Source: Candidatus Pacearchaeota archaeon
Lineage (GTDB): Archaea; Nanobdellota; Nanobdellia; UBA10117; JAFCGA01
Direction: 5' to 3'
Length of the DNA: 64,000 bases
Assembly: GCA_017608345.1 (NCBI GenBank)
Contig: JAFCGA010000002.1
Location: 79,023 to 143,022, forward strand
Shown: piece by piece, positions 985 through 58,222 of the stretch
How the letters are laid out: each line of letters opens with the position of its first letter
Numbering within the stretch: position 1 is the stretch's first letter
The notes under the pieces: model-generated
Databases searched by the model: none
What the model was told of the DNA's origin: nothing
The model's input: the letters and a program-made list of their open reading frames with translations, nothing else
Translations under genes and position numbers: made by a program

Positions 985-1310
985 AGTAGCGAGACTATAA
1001 GCCGCCTTATGTTCTGCTCCGTGGTCGGACAGCAGACGCAAGCATTCTACTTAGCGGTCTAGGACCTTGCACTCACTCGAATCGACAAGTTTCACTCACA
1101 ACTCAGCAACCTCACCGAGGATCATCGTGCGCTAAGCATGATTGCTTTCTGTCTATATCGATTTACAGTATTAACCATAGCTAGATTTCCTAGCCGAGCT
1201 GCCTTTTCTTTCACTCCGAGAAGCGAAATCATTAGGGCGTAAGAGGGCGGACTTTCCTCAGTGCTTTGGAGATTAATCCAAGAACTCCGATAGCTTGCCG
1301 TCCCGCTACT
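985..1310 (-). ncRNA. rnpB: RNase P RNA
   Basis: The minus-strand reading contains GAGGAAAGTCCGCCC (CR-I) and GCAGAACATAAGGCGGCTTATAG (CR-IV/V-like). The termini AGTAGCGGGAC and GTCTCGCTACT pair as P1. Confidence 0.85.
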
Positions 1311-3587: not shown

Positions 3588-3620
3588 GATAGATTCAAAG
3601 ATCTGAATAGCATAATATAA
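3588..3620. repeat. 3'-flank arm of the 23S rRNA processing stem (pairs with 6532-6560)
   Basis: gatagattcaaagatct (3588-3604) is the exact reverse complement of 6544-6560. gcataatataa (3610-3620) is the exact reverse complement of 6532-6542. Confidence 0.8.
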
Positions 3621-3639
3621 TCGAGCTGTTAGTAACTGC

Positions 3640-6525
<2,886 letters not shown>

Positions 6526-6531
6526 CGTGTT

Positions 6532-6560
6532 TTATATTATGCAAGATCTTTGAATCTATC
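6532..6560. repeat. 5'-flank arm of the 23S rRNA processing stem
   Basis: See 3588-3620. Confidence 0.8.
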
Positions 6561-6661: not shown

Positions 6662-6846
6662 TGGACCCGGAGGGATTTTCAAGCTACAAAGTTGCCGAAG
6701 GTATATTCGGAGCGACGAAGTCGCGTAGTAAAATACCTTTTCTTTGGGCTACCTTACACCTTTCTTTTTCTAAAAGAAAGGGGCAGTTTGAACCCCCAGC
6801 CTCCTGCATGCAAAGCAGGCGTTCTACCGGGTTGAACTACAGGCCC
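6662..6846 (-). tRNA. tRNA-Ala(UGC) in the 16S-23S spacer, with an inferred 111-nt insertion (about 6676-6786) in the T-loop
   Basis: The sense strand reads GGGCCTG TA GTTC..GAAC G CCTGC TT TGC AT GCAGG AGGCT GGGGG TTCAAA [111 nt] T CCCTC CGGGTCC A. The acceptor closes with the G3:U70 Ala identity pair. Confidence 0.8.
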
Positions 6847-6964
6847 ATAGTTTTAAGACAGATTGGTCGATTTATAAGGTTTTTCTTTGGGCCACTTATC
6901 GCGAACCGAAGTTCGCGATCTGTTCGTCCGCGTACGCTTGGAATTAGCGTACAAACATGAGTAT

Positions 6965-6981: not shown

Positions 6982-7653
6982 AACCTTCTTTGAGTATTAA
7001 TCAGGATACTTGCAAGCAAGTATCCTGATTTTAAAAGGAGGTGATCCATCTGCAGGTTCCCCTACAGATACCTTGTGTTGACTTCGCCCGCCTCGCTGAA
7101 CCAGGATTCGACTTAACCAAGAAGTTGAGCCTCATCCCAACCCAACTCGGTTGGCGTGACAGGCAGTGTGTGCAAGGGCCAGGGACACATTCACCGCACG
7201 ATGCTAACGCACGATTACTAGGGATTTCGTTTTCACGAGGGTGAGTTGCAACCCTCGATTCGAAAAGATTGAATTTAAGGGATTGGCTTCTCCTTTCGGA
7301 GTTGCAGCCCGTTGTTTCAACCATTGCTTGCCGCGTGTAGCCCAGAGGATTCGAGGCATACTGACCTACCGTAGCCTACACCTTCCTCTCCCTTTCGAGA
7401 GCAGTCCCTTCAGTGTGCTTATTCTCAATGAGAATAGTGGCAACTGAAAGCGTAGGTCTCGCTCGTTGTCTGACTTAACAGAACACCTCACGGCACGAGC
7501 TGACGGCGGCCATGCACCATCTCTCAGCGCGTCGAGTGAGCCATTCAGGCTGACCTTCATTCTGCTGTCGCTTCTGGTAAGGTTCCGGGCGTATAATCCA
7601 ATTGAACCGCAGCACCCACCCCTTGTGGTAGCCCCCCGCCAATTCCTTTAAGT

Positions 7654-7698
7654 ATACTGTAGCTACATTTCTCTAATATTTGTAAGAAAATATAGCAA
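7654..7698 (-). other. 16S insertion 1 (45 nt, putative intron) splitting GGCTGAA | ACTTAAAGGAATTGG
   Basis: The conserved block is contiguous in ordinary archaeal 16S but interrupted here. Boundary is +/-2 nt. Confidence 0.7.
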
Positions 7699-7817
7699 TT
7701 CAGCCTTGCGACCGTACTCCCCAGGTGGCCTGCTTAACGACTTCTCTCCGACACTGCATGCTCACGAAGAACATGCAGCACCTAGCAGGCAGCGTTTACG
7801 GCTAGGACTACGAGGGT

Positions 7818-7882
7818 TATTAGGGCTCTGGAAAATAGTTTTCTTTTTCCAGGGTTTTTCTTTTTAAAAAAAGAAAAAGCCT
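7818..7882 (-). other. 16S insertion 2 (65 nt, putative intron) splitting GGATTAGAT | ACCCTCGTAGTCC
   Basis: The interrupted block is the 785-806 'universal primer' region. The insert folds into two hairpins: TTTTTCTTTTT/AAAAAGAAAAA and CTGGAAAA/TTTTCCAG. Confidence 0.75.
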
Positions 7883-7980
7883 ATCTAATCCTCTTTGATC
7901 CCCTAGCTTTCATCCCTGACCGTCAGACCCGTTCTAGTTAGACGCCTTCGCCGCTGGCGGTCCTCTGGGGATTAAAACAA

Positions 7981-8071
7981 TGTAACTGCACTTTTTCGCT
8001 GCTTTGCAGCAAGTAAAGTAGTTTCTTTTGGGCTACCTTACACCTTTTCTTTCCTAAAGAAAAGGGGCAGT
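7981..8071 (-). other. 16S insertion 3 (about 91 nt, putative intron) splitting GAGCGGTAAAA | TTGTTTTAATCCCCAGAGGACC
   Basis: It interrupts the conserved GGTAAAATCCTGTAATCC-type block and carries a module shared with the tRNA-Ala insertion. Confidence 0.7.
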
Positions 8072-8235
8072 TTTTACCGCTCCCCCCAGAATACCTCTAA
8101 CTCCTCCCGGTCTCAAGCTAAGCAGTATTTTCAGCACGCCTGACAGTTGAGCTGCCAGATTTCACTAAAGACTTACTTAGCCGGCTACGGATGCTTTAGA
8201 CCCAATAAACGTGACCACCACTAAGGGCGCCGGGA

Positions 8236-8266
<31 letters not shown>

Positions 8267-8729
8267 CCCTTTATTCCTGAAGCGTTTTGGACTCCAGAAA
8301 AGCAGACGCAAAAAGCGCCTGCACGTAGGATTCCCCCATCACGCTTGCGCGCATTGTGGAGTATTCAGAACTGCTGCACCCCGTAGGGCTGGGAGCCTTA
8401 TCTCAGTCTCCCTCTCAGGGCTAGGACTCTCATCCCCCTTACAGATCTTAGGTTTGGTGAGCCGTTACCTCACCAACAGCCTAATCTGCCGCCAACTCAT
8501 CCTATGGCGCCGAAGCTTTGGATAAAAGCGCATTCCAGCCTCTTTTATCTATCGGGAATTATCTTCAGTTTCCCGAAGTTATGCCCGACCATAGGGTAGA
8601 TTATTGACGTGTTACTGAGCCTTTCGCCATGATTTCTCATAGACTTGCATGTCTCATGGATCCTACTAGCAGTGGTCTCCCGCAGGATAAACGGGAATTG
8701 TGATCGCATTAAAATAGAATTGGCTATTA

Positions 8730-10498: not shown

Positions 10499-10641
10499 TG
10501 CAGGGGACAGGGTTCGAACCTGCGTAGGCACTAAGCCACTGGGTCCTAAACCCAGCCCGTTCAATCGCAACCAACGCTAAGCTATCTTCTTTCCGCCAGC
10601 GCTTTCTTAAAGGGCTGCTTTGACCACTCCGGCACCCCTGC
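10499..10641 (-). tRNA. tRNA-Leu(UAG) with an inferred 57-nt insertion (about 10561-10617) in the D-loop
   Basis: GCAGGGG TG CCG GAGTGGTCAAAG [57 nt] A CGG G CTGGG TT TAG GA CCCAG, followed by a long variable arm, GCAGG TTCGAAC CCTGT CCCCTGC A. Confidence 0.75.
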
Positions 10642-12192: not shown

Positions 12193-13896
12193 TTACATCT
12201 CCGCAACTTCTTCAATTCCGAGCAAATTCAAAGCATTTTTTAGCGTATGAGCAAATGCCTTCACAAGAGCTAACCTTGCTCCCTGTAACTTCTTTTCAGC
12301 TCGAATTACTGGACAATTCTCATAAAAGCTAGAAAACAGTTGCGCTAGTTCGTAGGCGTAATTCGCAACCAACTGCGGCGAATAAGAATCAGCTGCTTTT
12401 TCAACAATTTCCGGAAAAAGAGCTATCTTTTTGACTAGCTCAAATTCATAGGGTTTAACTAATAATTCTAAGCTTGCTTTGCTTGGTTTTGCTTCTGATT
12501 TTTGCAAGATTTTGTTAGATCTTACTAATGCATACTGTAAATATGGTCCAGTGTTGCCTTCTAACGAAAGAACTTCGTCCCAATTAAAGCTAATCTGTTT
12601 GGTTGGAGAAACCCGAAGTTCGAAATATCTTATTGCTCCAACAGCGATTTTCTCAGCTAGTTTTAGCGGAGTTTTCTTTTTAGAGATTATTTTTTCTATC
12701 CCTTCATCTAGAATAGCGTCGGCCGGTAGCGTTGTTCCTGATCGAGTTGAGATCTTAACTTTATCGAAATTAACAAAAGATAAGAAAACAACATCGAGGG
12801 TCTTTGATTTTAGTATTCCAAAAATCTCGAGGAGTTTCTTAAGCTCAACAGCTTCGATTTTATGGTCTTCTCCTAGTACGATTATGTTCTTATCAGCAAG
12901 GCTTAGCTTATATTTATGATACGCTAGATCTCTAGTAATATAAACTGATGTTCCATTAGCTCTCAAAAATACAGTTCCTCCGCCCCTACGCTCGAATCCG
13001 TATTTGCTTAGATCCACAGCATGAGCGCCTTCTTCTAATATTTTATATTCGGGTAAGGCCTTTAGTTTATTAGCTATTTTCTTTTGCTCACCTGCTGCTA
13101 CAAGATCGCTTTCAAAGTCGAACTCATCAAAATTTATTCCAAATCGAGCAAGCATCTTTTTCTGTCCTTCCAGGCAAGTTTTGGCAACTTTGTTTAGCTC
13201 TGAAGCGTATTGCTTATTATTTTCTGCTGCGATTAAGAAATCATCAATTTCTTTCATTAGTTTCGGATTTTTCTCAACCAGCTTCATTGCGGTGACATAA
13301 ACGAACATAATTTTGAAGTCTGGGTTGTTCTTATATTTAGAGAATTTCTTAATCAGCGACGCAGAAGTTTTAATTTTATTTTTTATTCCCCAGTTGATTA
13401 TCGCGATTTGCTTGCCCATATCATTGACATAGTAATGCGTTTCTACATTGTAGCCGATTGCTTTGTATAATCTTACTAACGTATCTCCTATGAAAGAATT
13501 TCTTATACGTCCGACATGAGTTGGTCCGGAGGGATTAGTTGAAGTATGCTCGATTATTAATTTCTTGTTCTTCCCCTTATTTGATTTTCCGTAATTCTTG
13601 CTAACTTGTTTGAGTATTTCTGCAGCATATTTGCCTTCATCAACAAAGAAATTCAAATAAGGTCCGGCAATTTCTACTTTTTTAAAAATAGAGCTTTTCG
13701 GAATTGCTAGCTTTTTTCTTATTTGCATAGCAATCTCGCCCGGATTTTTCTTTAGCTTCTTAGATAAAATAAAGCAAGGGAAAGCTAAGTCTCCTAATTT
13801 TGAGTCAGGTGGGATCTCGATTAAATTTATGATCTGATTCTTGTTCAGCGAAATTAGCTTGCTTAGAATGCTAGCTGCTTGGGATTTGATATCCAT
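12193..13896 (-). CDS. argS: Arginine--tRNA ligase
   Basis: HTSTNPSGPTHVGRIRN, DLAYH, and the C-terminal anticodon-binding domain ending ..EVAEM. Confidence 0.9.
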   Translation of the reverse strand: MDIKSQAASILSKLISLNKNQIINLIEIPPDSKLGDLAFPCFILSKKLKKNPGEIAMQIRKKLAIPKSSIFKKVEIAGPYLNFFVDEGKYAAEILKQVSKNYGKSNKGKNKKLIIEHTSTNPSGPTHVGRIRNSFIGDTLVRLYKAIGYNVETHYYVNDMGKQIAIINWGIKNKIKTSASLIKKFSKYKNNPDFKIMFVYVTAMKLVEKNPKLMKEIDDFLIAAENNKQYASELNKVAKTCLEGQKKMLARFGINFDEFDFESDLVAAGEQKKIANKLKALPEYKILEEGAHAVDLSKYGFERRGGGTVFLRANGTSVYITRDLAYHKYKLSLADKNIIVLGEDHKIEAVELKKLLEIFGILKSKTLDVVFLSFVNFDKVKISTRSGTTLPADAILDEGIEKIISKKKTPLKLAEKIAVGAIRYFELRVSPTKQISFNWDEVLSLEGNTGPYLQYALVRSNKILQKSEAKPSKASLELLVKPYEFELVKKIALFPEIVEKAADSYSPQLVANYAYELAQLFSSFYENCPVIRAEKKLQGARLALVKAFAHTLKNALNLLGIEEVAEM

Positions 13897-16827: not shown

Positions 16828-16947
16828 TGCCCCCAGCGGGATTTACCTCGAACGTACCGTTCGTATAAATGCTCGTCACGCTCGCATTTGAACCCACGTC
16901 ACTGGCTTGAAAGGCCAGCATGCTTGGCCGGGCTACACTATGGGGGC
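16828..16947 (-). tRNA. tRNA-Glu(UUC) with an inferred 45-nt insertion in the T-loop
   Basis: GCCCCCA TA GTGT..GCAT G CTGGC CT TTC AA GCCAG TGAC GTGGG TTCAAAT [45 nt ending GGTAAAT] CCCGC TGGGGGC A. Confidence 0.75.
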
Positions 16948-17733: not shown

Positions 17734-17805
17734 TATATGTTCGTAATGTATGTTTATTATATGTCTTATTGGATATTATTCCGCCGTCAGTTTTTAAAAA
17801 GAATA

Positions 17806-17981
17806 TGGCCGAGATGAGATTTGAATTCGTGCACCAATTCCAGTTTAAGGGAAAGGGCGGCTCACGACCTCTGGTTGGCTTAAACGCATCGTAGCCGATG
17901 CGTGTCATATAAGACCAGCGCTCTAACCAGATTACTCACTTTCTCTTTTTCTAAAAGAGAAAAGCTCTAAGCTACTCGGCC
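17806..17981 (-). tRNA. tRNA-Ile(UAU) with three inferred insertions: D-loop 17931-17965, canonical 37/38 site 17877-17907, T-stem/T-loop junction 17826-17860
   Basis: Exons of 16+23+16+20 nt assemble into a 75-nt cloverleaf: GGCCGAG TA GCTT AGACTGGTTA GAGC G CTGGT CTTATAA ACCAG AGGTC GTGAG TTCAAAT CTCAT CTCGGCC A. At the 37/38 insertion, CTTA/TAAG forms the 4-bp helix of a bulge-helix-bulge (BHB) splice motif. Confidence 0.7.
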
Positions 17982-17984
17982 AAG

Positions 17985-18214
17985 CGCCCGTGGTCAGATT
18001 TTCTAAAGCCTGGGAACCAAGGTTCCCTTCTTTCTTCCAGAGAGAAATCCCCGAGATTTCTCTTGGCCACGCGAAACTTAACGAGTTTCGCTTGGTTTCC
18101 CGAGGGTTTTTCTTTCTTCGGGAAGAAAGAAAAAGGCTCTTTGAACTGACGGCCTCACGGTTTCTAACATAAGGCTAACAGCCGTGCGCTATAACCAGAC
18201 TAAGCTACACGGGC
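17985..18214 (-). tRNA. tRNA-Asn(GUU) with an inferred 14-nt anticodon-loop insertion (18162-18175) and a 141-nt T-loop insertion (17999-18139)
   Basis: GCCCGTG TA GCTT..AGC G CACGG CT GTT A [14] A CCGTG AGGCC GTCAG TTCAAA [141] T CTGAC CACGGGC G. It lies only 3 nt upstream of the tRNA-Ile 5' end. Confidence 0.65.
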
Positions 18215-18341
18215 AAGATAATACTCATAGATTCGTTTATAAAATTTGCGCAAGCGAATTTTATTCTCGAAAATCCGCGATTTTTGAGTTGAAAGAGTTT
18301 CTTATCGGAAGAAATATATTATAGTAAAACATTATTTCATT

Positions 18342-19139: not shown

Positions 19140-20249
19140 TTAAACAATAAAGTCTTTATTATCAATAATTGTAGGCAAATAAACCTTAGACGTGAAATCA
19201 ATTGATTTGCTGACCAAAGAATCTGATTCAACTTTATATTTGAAATCTTTCAAAGCTTTTAGCTCAGCCTGCCAAGCCTTATTCTTAAACCAATCATAGT
19301 TCTGGATCTCTTTGATTCTCTTGTAATCAAGATCATTCATCTCAATCCAATTTGTTTTAGGAATATCAAATCGCTTTATATCTTTAGTTTTCAATCCAAT
19401 GTATTTAGCGTCTGGGCAGCCTGCTTTTTCAGAGAAGAAAGCTAGGTTAATTGAGCCTTGCTTGTAAACAGAATAGATGTAATACCCGTAAGCATCCATA
19501 TCTGTGAAGATATAAACTGGAATCTTTAGTTCCTTGCTAATCCTCGCCAGTAATCTCCTTGCAGAACGGGAAGCCTGACCTTTTCCAGTCATAAGCAAGC
19601 AATTATTTTTCTTCCAGTACCGCTCCTGATTTAATAGATTCCAAACCGCGAACTTCTCAACTACGAGAATATAATCTGCGCTGCACTCTTTAAAATTAAC
19701 TACATGATTTTCAGTATTCGGAGGAATAGCCGCTCCGGCAGAGCCTAATTTAGCGCAATTAATAATATCATTAGTTTTCATGTCTTCATATACTAGTGGC
19801 CCAGCTATAACTCCGTCCGGCGTTGCTTCTAATCCGAGTTGTTCTCTAAGGACATCAATCGTAACTTCAACATCTTCAATTACTGGGTCTGTTTCAGTCT
19901 TCTGATCGTCAAAAGTATTTTCTTTTGAGCCTTCTATTGTGTGTTTTAGAATATAGTAGAGCTGTCTAGTTGAGATTGCAGGTTTGTTCTGTTCAAGGAG
20001 CTGTTTAATTCCTGCCGCAACTAAGGAAGTCTGCATGAATTTCTTAGCTTGACCTACGTTGAAAAATGTACGCGTCTGAGTTTTATCACCTAGTTTAATC
20101 AGCCGATCTTTCTCATCAAAGTAAGCATTGCTTAATGTTCTAAGTGGCATAGTCATGCTTGGATTTTTCAGCGCTTCAATAGCTCCATTCATGTCTACAC
20201 CCAAGTTCTTTAATCGTTGAATTATAATATCTCTAGTTAGCTCAGTCAT
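19140..20249 (-). CDS. top6A: DNA topoisomerase VI subunit A (Spo11 family)
   Basis: Winged-helix plus Toprim arrangement (..LVVEKFAVWNLL.., ..IFTDMDAYGYYI..). Confidence 0.9.
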   Translation of the reverse strand: MTELTRDIIIQRLKNLGVDMNGAIEALKNPSMTMPLRTLSNAYFDEKDRLIKLGDKTQTRTFFNVGQAKKFMQTSLVAAGIKQLLEQNKPAISTRQLYYILKHTIEGSKENTFDDQKTETDPVIEDVEVTIDVLREQLGLEATPDGVIAGPLVYEDMKTNDIINCAKLGSAGAAIPPNTENHVVNFKECSADYILVVEKFAVWNLLNQERYWKKNNCLLMTGKGQASRSARRLLARISKELKIPVYIFTDMDAYGYYIYSVYKQGSINLAFFSEKAGCPDAKYIGLKTKDIKRFDIPKTNWIEMNDLDYKRIKEIQNYDWFKNKAWQAELKALKDFKYKVESDSLVSKSIDFTSKVYLPTIIDNKDFIV

Positions 20250-41526: not shown

Positions 41527-41528
41527 TA

Positions 41529-41554
41529 AAGCGAATTTGATTATTCGCTTTTTC
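41529..41554 (+). terminator. Hairpin AAGCGAAT/ATTCGCTT followed by a T5 run, between L18 and S5
   Basis: 8-bp stem, 6-nt loop and oligo-T. It resembles an archaeal terminator or attenuator inside the cluster. Confidence 0.4.
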
Positions 41555-47376: not shown

Positions 47377-47440
47377 ACACGTCGGAAACTCGCTTTTCAG
47401 AAAAGCGAGGCCAAAACCGATAGCCCAAATTTCCTTGTGT
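47377..47440 (+). ncRNA. 64-nt variant of the ACACGTCGGAAA...TTTCCTTGTGT hairpin element, in the L34e leader
   Basis: It has the same outer stems as 29979-30018. The inner part is replaced by CTCGCTTTT CAG AAAAGCGAG plus GCCAAAACC. Confidence 0.45.
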
Positions 47441-52669: not shown

Positions 52670-52693
52670 TTTTCTCTTTCGCGAAAGAGAAAA
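52670..52693 (+). promoter_or_regulatory. Perfect 24-nt palindrome TTTTCTCTTTCGCGAAAGAGAAAA abutting the scpA ATG
   Basis: 12-bp stem. It has the same arm sequence type as the tRNA/rRNA insertion hairpins. Confidence 0.5.
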
Positions 52694-56131: not shown

Positions 56132-56171
56132 ACACGTCAGAAAGCCACGAAATTGGTTACTTTCCTCGTGT
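56132..56171 (+). ncRNA. Second copy of the 40-nt hairpin (ACACGTCAGAAAGCCACGAAATTGGTTACTTTCCTCGTGT)
   Basis: It aligns without gaps to 29979-30018. Differences keep or wobble the pairing (ACCA/TGGT becomes GCCA/TGGT). Confidence 0.55.
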
Positions 56172-56254
56172 TTCACCAGAGAAAACTCAGAGAGTTTTCT
56201 TGGCCAAGAGAATTTCAATGAAATTCTCTCTGGTTTCACCCAAGGTGAAACGAA

Positions 56255-58222
56255 ATGACTAAAATACTAACTAGCCTGGAACTTCTAGCTGTTGTTAATG
56301 AGCTGAAGGCTTTGCGAGGCGCTAGAATTAATAAAATATATCTCCCTGAGACGAGACTTCTTTTATTAGTATTACACAAACCCGGTGCGAACTATCAGCT
56401 TAAGATTGATTCAGGTGTAGGCGCATATTTAACTTCATATAAATTCGAGATGCCGCAAGCGCCACAAGGTTTCTGCCTCTTCCTCCGAAAGCATCTAAAC
56501 AATGCTATTCTAGATAATATTATACAAAAAGATATCGAGCGAATAATTGAATTTCATTTCCAAACCACGCAAGGTCCGCGCATTTTAATTTGCGAGTTGT
56601 TTTCAAAAGGAAATTTTATTCTGACAGATAGCAAATATGAGATAATAAATGTAGCTTCGATCCAAACCTGGAAAGATCGAATAATCAAGAAGGGCGAGAT
56701 CTATCAATACCCTCCACAACGATTTAACCCACTAAGATTAGATCGGCCTCAATTTATGCAGGCCTTGCAGAATTGGAAATCAAATGAGATTGTTAAGCTA
56801 ATTGCGTCAGGAATTGGATTAGGCGGAATATATGCAGAAGAAGTTTGTCTTAAGGCGGGTGTTGATAAAAATAAGCCGGGTGATAAATTAGATGACCCAG
56901 AAGTTGAGAAAGTTTACTTAGAAATTCAGGCAGCGATTTATGCTGTCCAAAAAAATCCAGATGCACAAGTTATCTATGAAGATTCTCAAATAGTAGATGC
57001 TACTCCGTTTAAATTGGAATTGTACAAGAACGAGATTAACAAACCTGCTGGAAGTTTCAACCAAGCACTAGATGTATTATATTCTCAAGAAGCCATCGCG
57101 CGGTTTAAGGCGGAGAAGTCAACAGTGTTTGACCAAAAACGCCAGCAGTTACAAACCATTTTAGATACTCAGAAACGATCGCTGGAACAATATAAAGTAG
57201 AATATATTCATAACCAAAAGCTAGCCGAGAGCATATATAATAATTATCAATTAATCTCAAACATTTTCAATAAGATAAAAAGTGCTAGAGATGCGGGCTA
57301 CAAATTGGAAGAGATTCATCAAGTTCTTGAAAATGAGAAGGCTCAAGGAGTATACGAAGCTCGAATGGTGCGGGACATAATTCCCGAGACAAATGCAATT
57401 ATTTTGAATATTGATAAAGAACTTAGTCTAGATCTAGCAAAATCAATAGAGCAGAATGCTGGGGATTATTACGAAAATGCTAAGCATTTAAAATCAAAGA
57501 TCGAGGGAGCGCAAAATACTGTTAAGCGAACTGAAAAAGAGATTGAAGAATTAACTGCGGGGAGATCTGAATTTGAACAGAAGCTAGAAAAGCAGCTACC
57601 AAAACCAATAAAGAAAGTTGAAAAAAAATGGTACGAGAATTTCAGGTGGTTCTTCACATCTTCTGGTTTGCTAGCTGTCGGCGGAAGAGATGCGACTAGC
57701 AATGATATTCTGGTTAAGAAATATTTGGAAGTGGGAGATATTATATTTCATACTGAGTTACCCGGATCACCTTTTTTTATTATCAAAGGCGGAAGAGAAA
57801 AGTCAACAGACAAAGATCGAGAAGAGGTTGCAAATGCTACAGCTTCGTTTTCGAGAGCATGGCGTACGGGTGTTGGAACTGCAGAAGTTTATTGGATTCT
57901 TCCAGAGCAAGTTACTAAAGAATACGGCTTGCAAAGAGGCTCATTTATGATCCGAGGCAAGAGAAACTACAACAGAAATGCTATACTTGAAGTGTCTGTG
58001 GGTGTTGATTCAGAAAGCAAGATTATGAGCGGACCAAAATCAGCAATTTCAAAACGCTGTCAGAAATCAGCAACCGTTAGACCGGGGCAAGAAAAGACTT
58101 CGGATGTTGCTAAAAAAATTGCTCAAAAACTAGAACTAAAAGATCAGCTAAACGAGATTATTGCTTCACTTCCTGCGGGCGGAAGTTATATTCAGAAACC
58201 AACGCATCCAGCAAGGTTGTAA
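56255..58222 (+). CDS. NFACT-family protein (FbpA/Rqc2/RqcH homologue, ribosome quality control)
   Basis: N-terminal NFACT-N, a coiled coil and a C-terminal DUF814-like ..FHTELPGSPFFIIKG.. Confidence 0.8.
   Translation: MTKILTSLELLAVVNELKALRGARINKIYLPETRLLLLVLHKPGANYQLKIDSGVGAYLTSYKFEMPQAPQGFCLFLRKHLNNAILDNIIQKDIERIIEFHFQTTQGPRILICELFSKGNFILTDSKYEIINVASIQTWKDRIIKKGEIYQYPPQRFNPLRLDRPQFMQALQNWKSNEIVKLIASGIGLGGIYAEEVCLKAGVDKNKPGDKLDDPEVEKVYLEIQAAIYAVQKNPDAQVIYEDSQIVDATPFKLELYKNEINKPAGSFNQALDVLYSQEAIARFKAEKSTVFDQKRQQLQTILDTQKRSLEQYKVEYIHNQKLAESIYNNYQLISNIFNKIKSARDAGYKLEEIHQVLENEKAQGVYEARMVRDIIPETNAIILNIDKELSLDLAKSIEQNAGDYYENAKHLKSKIEGAQNTVKRTEKEIEELTAGRSEFEQKLEKQLPKPIKKVEKKWYENFRWFFTSSGLLAVGGRDATSNDILVKKYLEVGDIIFHTELPGSPFFIIKGGREKSTDKDREEVANATASFSRAWRTGVGTAEVYWILPEQVTKEYGLQRGSFMIRGKRNYNRNAILEVSVGVDSESKIMSGPKSAISKRCQKSATVRPGQEKTSDVAKKIAQKLELKDQLNEIIASLPAGGSYIQKPTHPARL

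Follow-up and report, generated by a model that had tools for sequence, protein, structure and literature searches.

Archaea in which splicing endonucleases of broad specificity are accompanied by tRNA genes broken at non-canonical sites, including position 59/60 in the T-loop, have already been described, among them members of the DPANN lineages. For instance, the endonuclease of ARMAN-2 cuts, in vitro, a 59/60 intron of the relaxed helix-bulge-helix (hBH) type in that organism's own pre-tRNA-Cys (PMC3239211). The present analysis concerns a 64,000 nt stretch of contig JAFCGA010000002.1 from a Candidatus Pacearchaeota archaeon (positions 79,023 to 143,022 of the forward strand; assembly GCA_017608345.1), hereafter the window, and specifically a tRNA-Asn(GUU) gene within it, the T-loop of which is split by 141 nt of hairpin-rich sequence. 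The locus is a real tRNA gene and probably a functional one with two protein-spliced introns, co-transcribed with the tRNA-Ile(UAU) gene that follows it.

The ARMAN-2 intron is the closest known case, as it likewise involves a DPANN host with multi-intron tRNAs, a T-loop intron at 59/60 and a relaxed hBH-type motif with the T stem as the outer helix. However, ARMAN introns are short, whereas the Asn intron is 141 nt long and contains multiple hairpins. The ARMAN-2 endonuclease is of the epsilon2 type. The closest known phenomenon, to which the Asn locus belongs in kind, is that of the multi-intron tRNAs and intron families of the Thermoproteales, in which many tRNA genes harbour one to three non-canonical introns, at sites including 53/54, 56/57 and 59/60, and for which 'large-scale intron transposition' has been described (Sugahara 2008 and Fujishima 2010, as summarised in PMC4090602 and PMC4033280). 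The two have in common that, within a single genome, introns of similar sequence sit in host tRNAs unrelated to each other, here in the D-loop of tRNA-Ile and the T-loop of tRNA-Ala, and differ in phylum, in the AT-rich (39% G+C in the window) and probably mesophilic nature of the genome considered here, and in the presence of further copies in its 16S rRNA gene and intergenic DNA. A limited literature search found no prior report of tRNA intron paralogues inside a 16S rRNA gene and in intergenic DNA.

Other described systems share individual features with the locus. Archaeal tRNA introns are stated to be normally shorter than 100 nt (PMC4033280), compared with the 141 nt of the Asn intron. 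The haloarchaeal tRNA-Trp intron is also long (~100 nt), is of the bulge-helix-bulge type and contains an independently folding RNA, but its site is 37/38, and the RNA it encodes is identifiable as a C/D box guide whose targets are known (PMC4090602); the Asn intron lies at 59/60, lacks C, D and ACA boxes and has no Rfam match. Intervening sequences in conserved 16S loops are known as introns in Thermoproteales (PMC4496867) and as rRNA insertions in DPANN archaea (PMC6125680); archaeal 16S introns are usually hundreds of nucleotides long and often carry homing endonuclease genes (PMC4496867), whereas the two insertions found here are 65 and 92 nt long and contain no open reading frame (ORF). 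In the Asgard archaea Atabeyarchaeia and Freyarchaeia, 92-95% of tRNA genes contain introns, and the near-universal interruption, the non-canonical positions, the several introns per gene and the oversight of such genes by standard finders are all paralleled in the window; these archaea are, however, of another superphylum, and paralogy of their introns with rRNA insertions is not reported (PMC11291895). Judged on its sequence, the Asn intron thus appears to be set apart from known cases by its 141 nt length, its mosaic make-up and its 16S rRNA gene paralogues.

Structure and conservation of the tRNA-Asn(GUU) gene

The gene occupies 230 nt of the minus strand (17985..18214) and consists of three exons and two introns, given here in transcript order; all coordinates are those of the window. 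Exon 1 (18214..18176, 39 nt) comprises the 5' strand of the acceptor stem, the D arm and the 5' strand of the anticodon stem with the loop as far as A37, and is separated by a 14 nt intron (18175..18162, GCCTTATGTTAGAA), at the canonical position 37/38 and with a weak bulge-helix-loop motif, from exon 2 (18161..18140, 22 nt). The latter supplies A38, the 3' strand of the anticodon stem, the variable loop, the 5' strand of the T stem and the T-loop sequence TTCAAA. The 141 nt intron 2 (18139..17999) then interrupts the T-loop at 59/60, beginning with GAGCCTTTTT, ending with TTTAGAAAA and containing four perfect hairpins within a closing helix, GAGCC:GGCTT. Exon 3 (17998..17985, 14 nt) provides T60, the 3' strands of the T and acceptor stems and the discriminator G73; CCA is not encoded.

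When joined, the exons (39+22+14 = 75 nt) are called as tRNA-Asn(gtt) with a complete cloverleaf by ARAGORN, whereas the unspliced 230 nt yield no tRNA call from either ARAGORN or Rfam, even at E <= 10. The preliminary description of the locus, a tRNA-Asn(GUU) gene spanning 230 nt with exons totalling 75 nt, therefore holds at every coordinate on the minus strand. The cloverleaf has stems of 7/4/5/5 bp, with an anticodon loop and a T-loop of 7 nt each; the universal residues U8, A14, G18G19, U33, T54-T55-C56 and A58, together with the family discriminator G73, all fall in invariant alignment columns, and the spliced T-loop, TTCAAAT, is the same as that of nine relatives. An alternative splice register producing the anticodon GUA (tRNA-Tyr) was ruled out by G1-C72, G73 and synteny with the relatives' tRNA-Asn, and an ORF on the opposite strand (17990-18172, plus strand, 60 aa) was discarded as a gene, being antisense to tRNA-Asn. 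The 14 nt anticodon intron holds a near copy (ATGTTAGAAA) of the adjoining upstream anticodon loop CTGTTAG (18162-18190, minus strand), which may be the trace of an origin by local duplication.

The exons bear the marks of selection for the cloverleaf. In an alignment (A1) of ten sequences, namely the spliced tRNA-Asn and nine counterparts taken from related loci, 99% of cloverleaf cells are paired and compensatory changes are found at 13 of the 21 pairs, a level of covariation reached by 0 of 500 shuffles, and every slid register collapses. Two lineage-specific double substitutions in the T stem, GUCAG/CUGAC (columns 53/65 and 54/64), have changed both strands relative to the relatives; since they span the 141 nt insert that separates the halves of the stem, its pairing must still be under selection. 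The surroundings are conserved as well, the order of the topoisomerase VI A gene (top6A), tRNA-Asn and tRNA-Ile, often then followed by tRNA-Glu, recurring in six related loci (L002, L020, L094, L025, L030 and L049). The T-loop insert is present in no relative's tRNA-Asn among the related loci compared; introns in the anticodon loop are found in the tRNA-Asn genes of L094 (14 nt) and L024 (32 nt).

These observations bear on the proposal, considered distinctly unlikely, that the locus is a decaying pseudogene, its T-loop having been struck by a small palindromic mobile element while another copy of tRNA-Asn reads the Asn codons. Modules of the insert do also occur in intergenic DNA, the bulge-helix-bulge motif of the T-loop intron is relaxed, and the rest of the genome lies beyond the 64 kb view. 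By contrast, the exons are intact and covary with those of relatives, the two compensatory T-stem changes across the insert included, and they stand in a conserved syntenic slot. Furthermore, all five tRNA genes of the window (Asn, Ile, Glu, Leu and Ala) are interrupted, three of them by 59/60 T-loop inserts; as these include the sole tRNA-Ala of the rRNA operon and interruption is thus the norm, it is no sign of decay. DPANN genomes are also small and usually have one gene per tRNA, which counts against a second, functional copy.

Splice motifs at the two introns

In archaea, the splicing endonuclease cleaves each of the bulges flanking a 4 bp helix immediately 3' to its second base (PMC4090602, PMC3239211). 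When folded under the constraint of the four cloverleaf helices, the T arm of the Asn precursor forms the T stem, a 3 nt AAU bulge on the 3' strand, a helix of U54-U55-C56 with GAA, a small internal loop and a 7 bp closing helix, the last formed by pairing of the two ends of the intron. Owing to a run of A residues the splice register, read from the sequence, is ambiguous between 56/57 and 59/60; the rule of symmetric cleavage, with A57.A as the fourth position, picks AA|U60 and A58A59|G as the exon boundaries and hence 59/60, in agreement with the limits of 17999-18139 first assigned to the insertion. Neither intron has the strict hBHBh' motif of two 3 nt bulges and a 4 bp helix, and the T-loop intron conforms to a relaxed hBH / HBh' motif with symmetric splice sites. 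Among 200,000 shuffled versions of the intron, 0.2% form a central helix together with a closing helix of 6 bp or more. Both insertion positions are documented for introns of this type, 37/38 being canonical and 59/60 a catalogued non-canonical site (PMC4090602).

On this basis, both introns would be excised by the splicing endonuclease EndA and the exons joined by an RtcB-type ligase. For the motif at the 141 nt intron, the outer helix would come from the T stem, and U54-U55-C56(-A57) would pair with (A)GAA near the 3' end of the intron to form the central helix; the 3' splice site would be carried by the 3 nt bulge, AA|U60, and the 5' splice site (A58 A59|G) would lie in the small internal loop, closed by the 6-7 bp helix of the intron ends. 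As this motif is of the relaxed hBH type, an endonuclease of broad specificity would be needed. In DPANN archaea, including Woese- and Pacearchaeota, an EndA with an L3 loop has been linked with more disrupted tRNA genes and with incomplete predicted tRNA sets (PMC5829648). In the window, ARAGORN and Rfam miss tRNA-Asn, tRNA-Ile and tRNA-Glu and mis-parse tRNA-Ala, such that the tRNA sets of genomes of this kind appear incomplete. A self-splicing group I intron is ruled out, since there is no match to a catalytic core (no Rfam group I match even at E <= 10) and 141 nt is too short.

A number of points nevertheless weigh against a functional, spliced gene. The T-loop motif departs from the strict 3-4-3 arrangement, its central helix consisting of three Watson-Crick pairs and an A.A mismatch; although the AAU bulge at the 3' site is as required, there is no clean bulge at the 5' splice site, which is found instead within an internal loop of 2x1/3x2. 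The motif at the anticodon intron is weaker still, with a central helix of two Watson-Crick pairs (C32-G and U33-A), one G.U (G34.U) and a U.U mismatch, which justifies the doubt originally expressed about this intron; the 14 nt intron at the same site in the tRNA-Asn of L094 has a perfect CTGT:ACAG central helix. The endonuclease gene appears to lie outside the window: a search for EndA by tblastn with an M. jannaschii sequence, in itself a weak test, matched nothing in the 64 kb. A run of five T residues at intron nt 6-10 could serve as a premature archaeal terminator, and the absence of the T-loop intron from the tRNA-Asn of any relative means that the intron provides no cross-species covariation. 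Splicing of tRNA-Asn is itself deduced from the DNA, and with the view limited to 64 kb of a contig of at least 150 kb, a second, intact tRNA-Asn gene may exist elsewhere in the genome.

Make-up and relatives of the T-loop intron

The four clean hairpins attributed to the insertion are all present, on the minus strand, and all 36 of their base pairs are Watson-Crick, with no G.U. Hairpin 1 (18134..18107) pairs a pyrimidine run with a purine run over 13 bp, TTTTTCTTTCTTC-CC-GAAGAAAGAAAAA, and with its flanks makes up the 5' module of the intron. It is followed by a core module (intron nt 32-99; 18041..18108), which has the arrangement GAAACCA - hairpin 2 - TGGCCA - hairpin 3, with hairpin 2 of 7 bp at 18091..18071 and hairpin 3 of 9 bp at 18063..18041. 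The last, hairpin 4 (18027..18012), is again of 7 bp, GGGAACC-TT-GGTTCCC. The predicted folding energy of the intron is -57.5 kcal/mol, against -39.9 +/- 3.8 kcal/mol for 200 dinucleotide shuffles (z = -4.7), none of which folds as well. The opposite strand folds better still (z = -6.3), and long-range alternative pairings compete with the local hairpins.

Both of the modules have counterparts elsewhere in the window. The closing strand and hairpin 1 (intron nt 2-37) align with nt 1-32 of a 65 nt insertion in the 16S rRNA gene (insertion 2; 7882..7818, minus strand) with a score of 35, against 9.7 +/- 2.1 and 0 of 2000 shuffles, so that this insertion and the first third of the intron, counted from its 5' end, are paralogues; the 3' parts of the two align weakly (p ~0.002). 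The insertion lies within GGATTAGAT|ACCC, the universally conserved 16S '790-loop' sequence. Similarly, the core (nt 32-99) is homologous to an intergenic array of hairpins at 56150..56260 (score 44 vs 14.4 +/- 2.3; 0 of 1000 shuffles). The scaffold of GAAACCA, hairpin, TGGCCA and hairpin is kept between the two, and the arms of the hairpins differ yet stay complementary. The sequence TGGCCAAGAR was rejected as a marker of the family, as it is no commoner than expected by chance in the window. The window contains 17 perfect hairpins with stems of 9 bp or longer, compared with 0-4 in shuffled sequences. Outside tRNA introns and rRNA insertions, hairpins are mostly found in short intergenic spacers between genes on the same strand or around the rRNA operon (sites including, besides the array at 56150-56260, 52670-52693, 47389-47409, 41528-41551, 6898-6919 and 6999-7030), and may serve to terminate transcription or to mark processing sites, or may be small palindromic repeat elements.

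As the antisense strand folds at least as well and the modules recur in the 16S rRNA gene and the intergenic array, intron 2 looks like a mosaic of palindromic modules existing at the DNA level rather than a dedicated RNA. The early characterisation of the insertion as a structured RNA was thus borne out with regard to its strong fold; the implied reading as a dedicated functional RNA was not, given the folding of the opposite strand and the recurrence of the modules. It is correspondingly improbable, if somewhat less so than decay of the gene, that the intron doubles as a structured non-coding RNA, persisting after excision, for instance as a circle, and acting in trans. Such a role would fit the strength of the predicted fold, the maintenance of the core hairpins, whose arms differ from those of the intergenic paralogue yet stay complementary, the known circularisation of excised archaeal introns (PMC3326292) and the precedent of the guide RNA encoded in the haloarchaeal tRNA-Trp intron (PMC4090602). 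However, the hairpins are exclusively Watson-Crick, the antisense strand folds better, the long-range pairings rival the local hairpins, the best-matching intergenic copy is oriented opposite to its flanking genes, and the intron is found in the tRNA-Asn of no relative. Searches with the locus retrieved no Rfam family at E < 0.2 and only noise at E <= 10, consisting of sX8, an antisense match to SNORA64 (the sole snoRNA match, E = 0.27) and microRNA hairpins. A box C/D or H/ACA guide RNA in particular is ruled out: the intron has none of the C (RUGAUGA), D (CUGA) and ACA boxes, and neither TGATGA nor ACA is found in its 141 nt.

The mosaic suggests that the ancestor may have been an intron of ~65-80 nt resembling 16S insertion 2, and that a hairpin array of ~65 nt was later taken up in its middle; nested insertion of this sort would account for the unusual length. 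The make-up of the intron would then represent one route of intron growth, through the nesting of palindromic modules. BLAST against 160 related loci, drawn from collections of genomes and metagenomes, detected no homologue of intron 2, and an exact-pattern scan of viral contigs likewise gave none.

A second T-loop intron of the same design, at the same position, is found in tRNA-Ala(UGC), located in the 16S-23S spacer (6846..6662, minus strand). It is 111 nt long (6786..6676, at 59/60), with the junction TTCAAA|...TGAAAA|T, and its removal leaves 74 nt recognised as tRNA-Ala(tgc) and retaining the G3.U70 pair; unspliced, the gene is mis-parsed by ARAGORN (6754-6847) and partly matched by Rfam (6779-6839). 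Nucleotides 1-60 of this intron align with the first 16S insertion (8071..7980, minus strand, 92 nt, within the '690-loop' sequence GGTAAAA|TG) with a score of 69 vs 14.1 +/- 2.3, identifying the two as paralogues. The bulge-helix-bulge motifs that can be drawn for the 16S insertions are poor, and both insertions are missing from relatives' 16S genes, the second from those of L004, L006 and L020, the three compared. A hairpin is also shared between the D-loop intron of tRNA-Ile and the T-loop intron of tRNA-Ala (score 32 vs 12.2); this 25 nt sequence has an identical copy in an intergenic array of L002, where tRNA-Glu and tRNA-Leu are immediately followed by similar hairpins.

Similar introns are therefore present in different host genes, with the likeness running from the splice junction on, as in a family of transposed or duplicated introns. 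It is possible, and proposed here tentatively, that the two 16S insertions belong with the T-loop introns of tRNA-Asn and tRNA-Ala to a single family of small mobile introns devoid of an endonuclease gene. Its members would insert into loops in the hairpins of stable RNAs, those of the T arm in tRNAs and, in 16S rRNA, the '690' and '790' loops; they would each be neutralised by the host endonuclease and would grow through the capture of palindromic hairpins, which would account for the 141 nt of the Asn intron. At every site, the flanking exon stem would give the outer helix of the bulge-helix-bulge motif. Should this be true, and should the 16S copies be spliced, they would show directly, at the level of sequence, that introns have moved between tRNA and rRNA genes in a DPANN archaeon. 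More generally, if the 16S insertions are spliced, the paralogy of tRNA introns and 16S insertions in a single genome would open to testing how endonuclease-dependent introns arise and spread, in a lineage not yet studied in this respect.

The tRNA-Glu(UUC) gene (16947..16828, minus strand) has a 45 nt T-loop insert (16886..16842); it is called by neither ARAGORN nor Rfam, and its junction fails the relaxed bulge-helix-bulge test applied here. In tRNA-Leu(UAG) (10641..10499, minus strand), an insert of ~58 nt (10560-10617) is found in the D-loop. Over 30 nt, CAGCCCTTT..AAAGCGCTGGCGGAAA, it is 90% identical to the stretch that immediately follows tRNA-Ile in L002 (stretch at 13185-13214), a different genome, and the motif GCTGGCGGAAA is common to the tRNA-Leu intron and L002, in two relevant copies. 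Because the spacer tRNA-Ala of L020 (20675-20780), a Pacearchaeota bin, also carries a T-loop insert of ~30 nt, with only the 5' part of the tRNA detected by Rfam, T-loop introns are not confined to the organism of the window.

The Asn-Ile tandem and surrounding genes

The tRNA-Ile(UAU) gene (17981..17806, minus strand) follows so closely that, as was stated from the outset, only 3 nt, read as CTT (17984..17982), separate the Asn discriminator G (17985) from G1 of tRNA-Ile (17981). It spans 176 nt, and ARAGORN recognises the spliced 75 nt as tRNA-Ile(tat) once introns in the D-loop (17966..17932, 35 nt), the anticodon loop (17907..17877, 31 nt) and the T arm at 53/54 (17860..17826, 35 nt) are removed. 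The tandem is conserved, the Asn-Ile spacer measuring 1-8 nt in six of eight relatives' clusters and ~50 nt and ~100 nt in L001 and L024, respectively. An anticodon intron of 31-38 nt is present in every tRNA-Ile(UAU) of the relatives (L001, L002, L016, L020, L024 and L094), whose rare anticodon is also that of the window gene, and is missing from the tRNA-Ile(GAU) of L025, L030 and L054. Its restriction to the UAU isoacceptor hints at an intron-dependent step specific to tRNA-Ile(UAU).

A TATA-like box, TTTTATAAA (18236..18244, minus strand), lies 21 nt upstream of G1 of tRNA-Asn and is presumed to be the promoter of the pair. The Asn, Glu, Leu and Ala genes are each preceded by a box of the form TTTWTAAA that ends 21-24 nt ahead of the mature 5' end (24 nt for the last three), a spacing that would place transcription starts at, or a few bases from, the mature end and give near-leaderless pre-tRNAs. 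No TATA-like box was read in front of tRNA-Ile; the 3' end of the Asn intron, TTTAGAAAA, was rejected as a promoter for it, as its distance does not fit the 21-24 nt of the other four tRNA promoters. Directly after tRNA-Ile is a T-rich tract, TTCTTTTT (17796..17803, minus strand), presumed to be an archaeal terminator. An archaeal RNase P RNA is encoded at 985..1310 on the minus strand (RF00373, 69.7 bits, E = 1.6e-18, full model length), which the default Rfam scan misses because 69.7 bits is below the gathering score of 84.

Given the presumed promoter and terminator and the RNase P RNA, co-transcription of the pair followed by cleavage by RNase P and trimming is plausible, and the arrangement is kept in most relatives. 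A single TATA-box promoter would drive the Asn-Ile transcript, RNase P would cut at G1 of tRNA-Ile, and the 3 nt CUU trailer of tRNA-Asn would be removed by RNase Z or by trimming, before addition of CCA. The original suggestion of a dicistronic precursor is supported by the preservation of the tandem in relatives, the lack of a TATA-like box belonging to tRNA-Ile, the oligo-T tract after it, and the presence of RNase P RNA in the window.

The same elements bear upon a scheme of expression in two pieces, in which transcription would stop at the T5 run in the Asn intron and restart within it, the halves then being joined in trans as with the split tRNAs of Nanoarchaeum. The T run does begin 5 nt into intron 2, the TATA-like TTTAGAAAA stands at its 3' end and the complementary intron ends would be able to pair in trans. 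However, TTTAGAAAA ends at the splice site, such that a spacing of 21-24 nt puts the start inside tRNA-Ile and not before exon 3; T runs are also found in the Ala and Ile introns; and, as the halves are contiguous and on the same strand, splicing in cis is simpler. Of the alternatives considered for the locus, this is the least probable.

Elsewhere in the window, Rfam identifies archaeal 23S (3609-6543) and 16S (7036-8698) rRNA genes on the minus strand. Of the neighbouring protein-coding genes, that for topoisomerase VI A (19140-20249, minus strand) has best matches of 73-76% identity in Woesearchaeota, Pacearchaeota and Nanoarchaeota bins and in metagenome contigs, and in the protein collection a methyltransferase and an HD protein reach at most 56% and 42% identity, respectively. 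The host is accordingly placed as an uncultivated, Woesearchaeota/Pacearchaeota-like DPANN archaeon lacking close relatives among those sampled. Matches to top6A extend to 86%; of the three contigs fetched, at 80-81% identity, none has a tRNA cluster on the downstream side, and those with closer matches (82-86%) span just 1.6-1.9 kb. Homologues of topoisomerase VI A with 43-50% identity turn up often in bins of Phycisphaerae/Planctomycetota and in some from Myxococcota (L014-L079), these groups thus being bacterial carriers of a typically archaeal protein.

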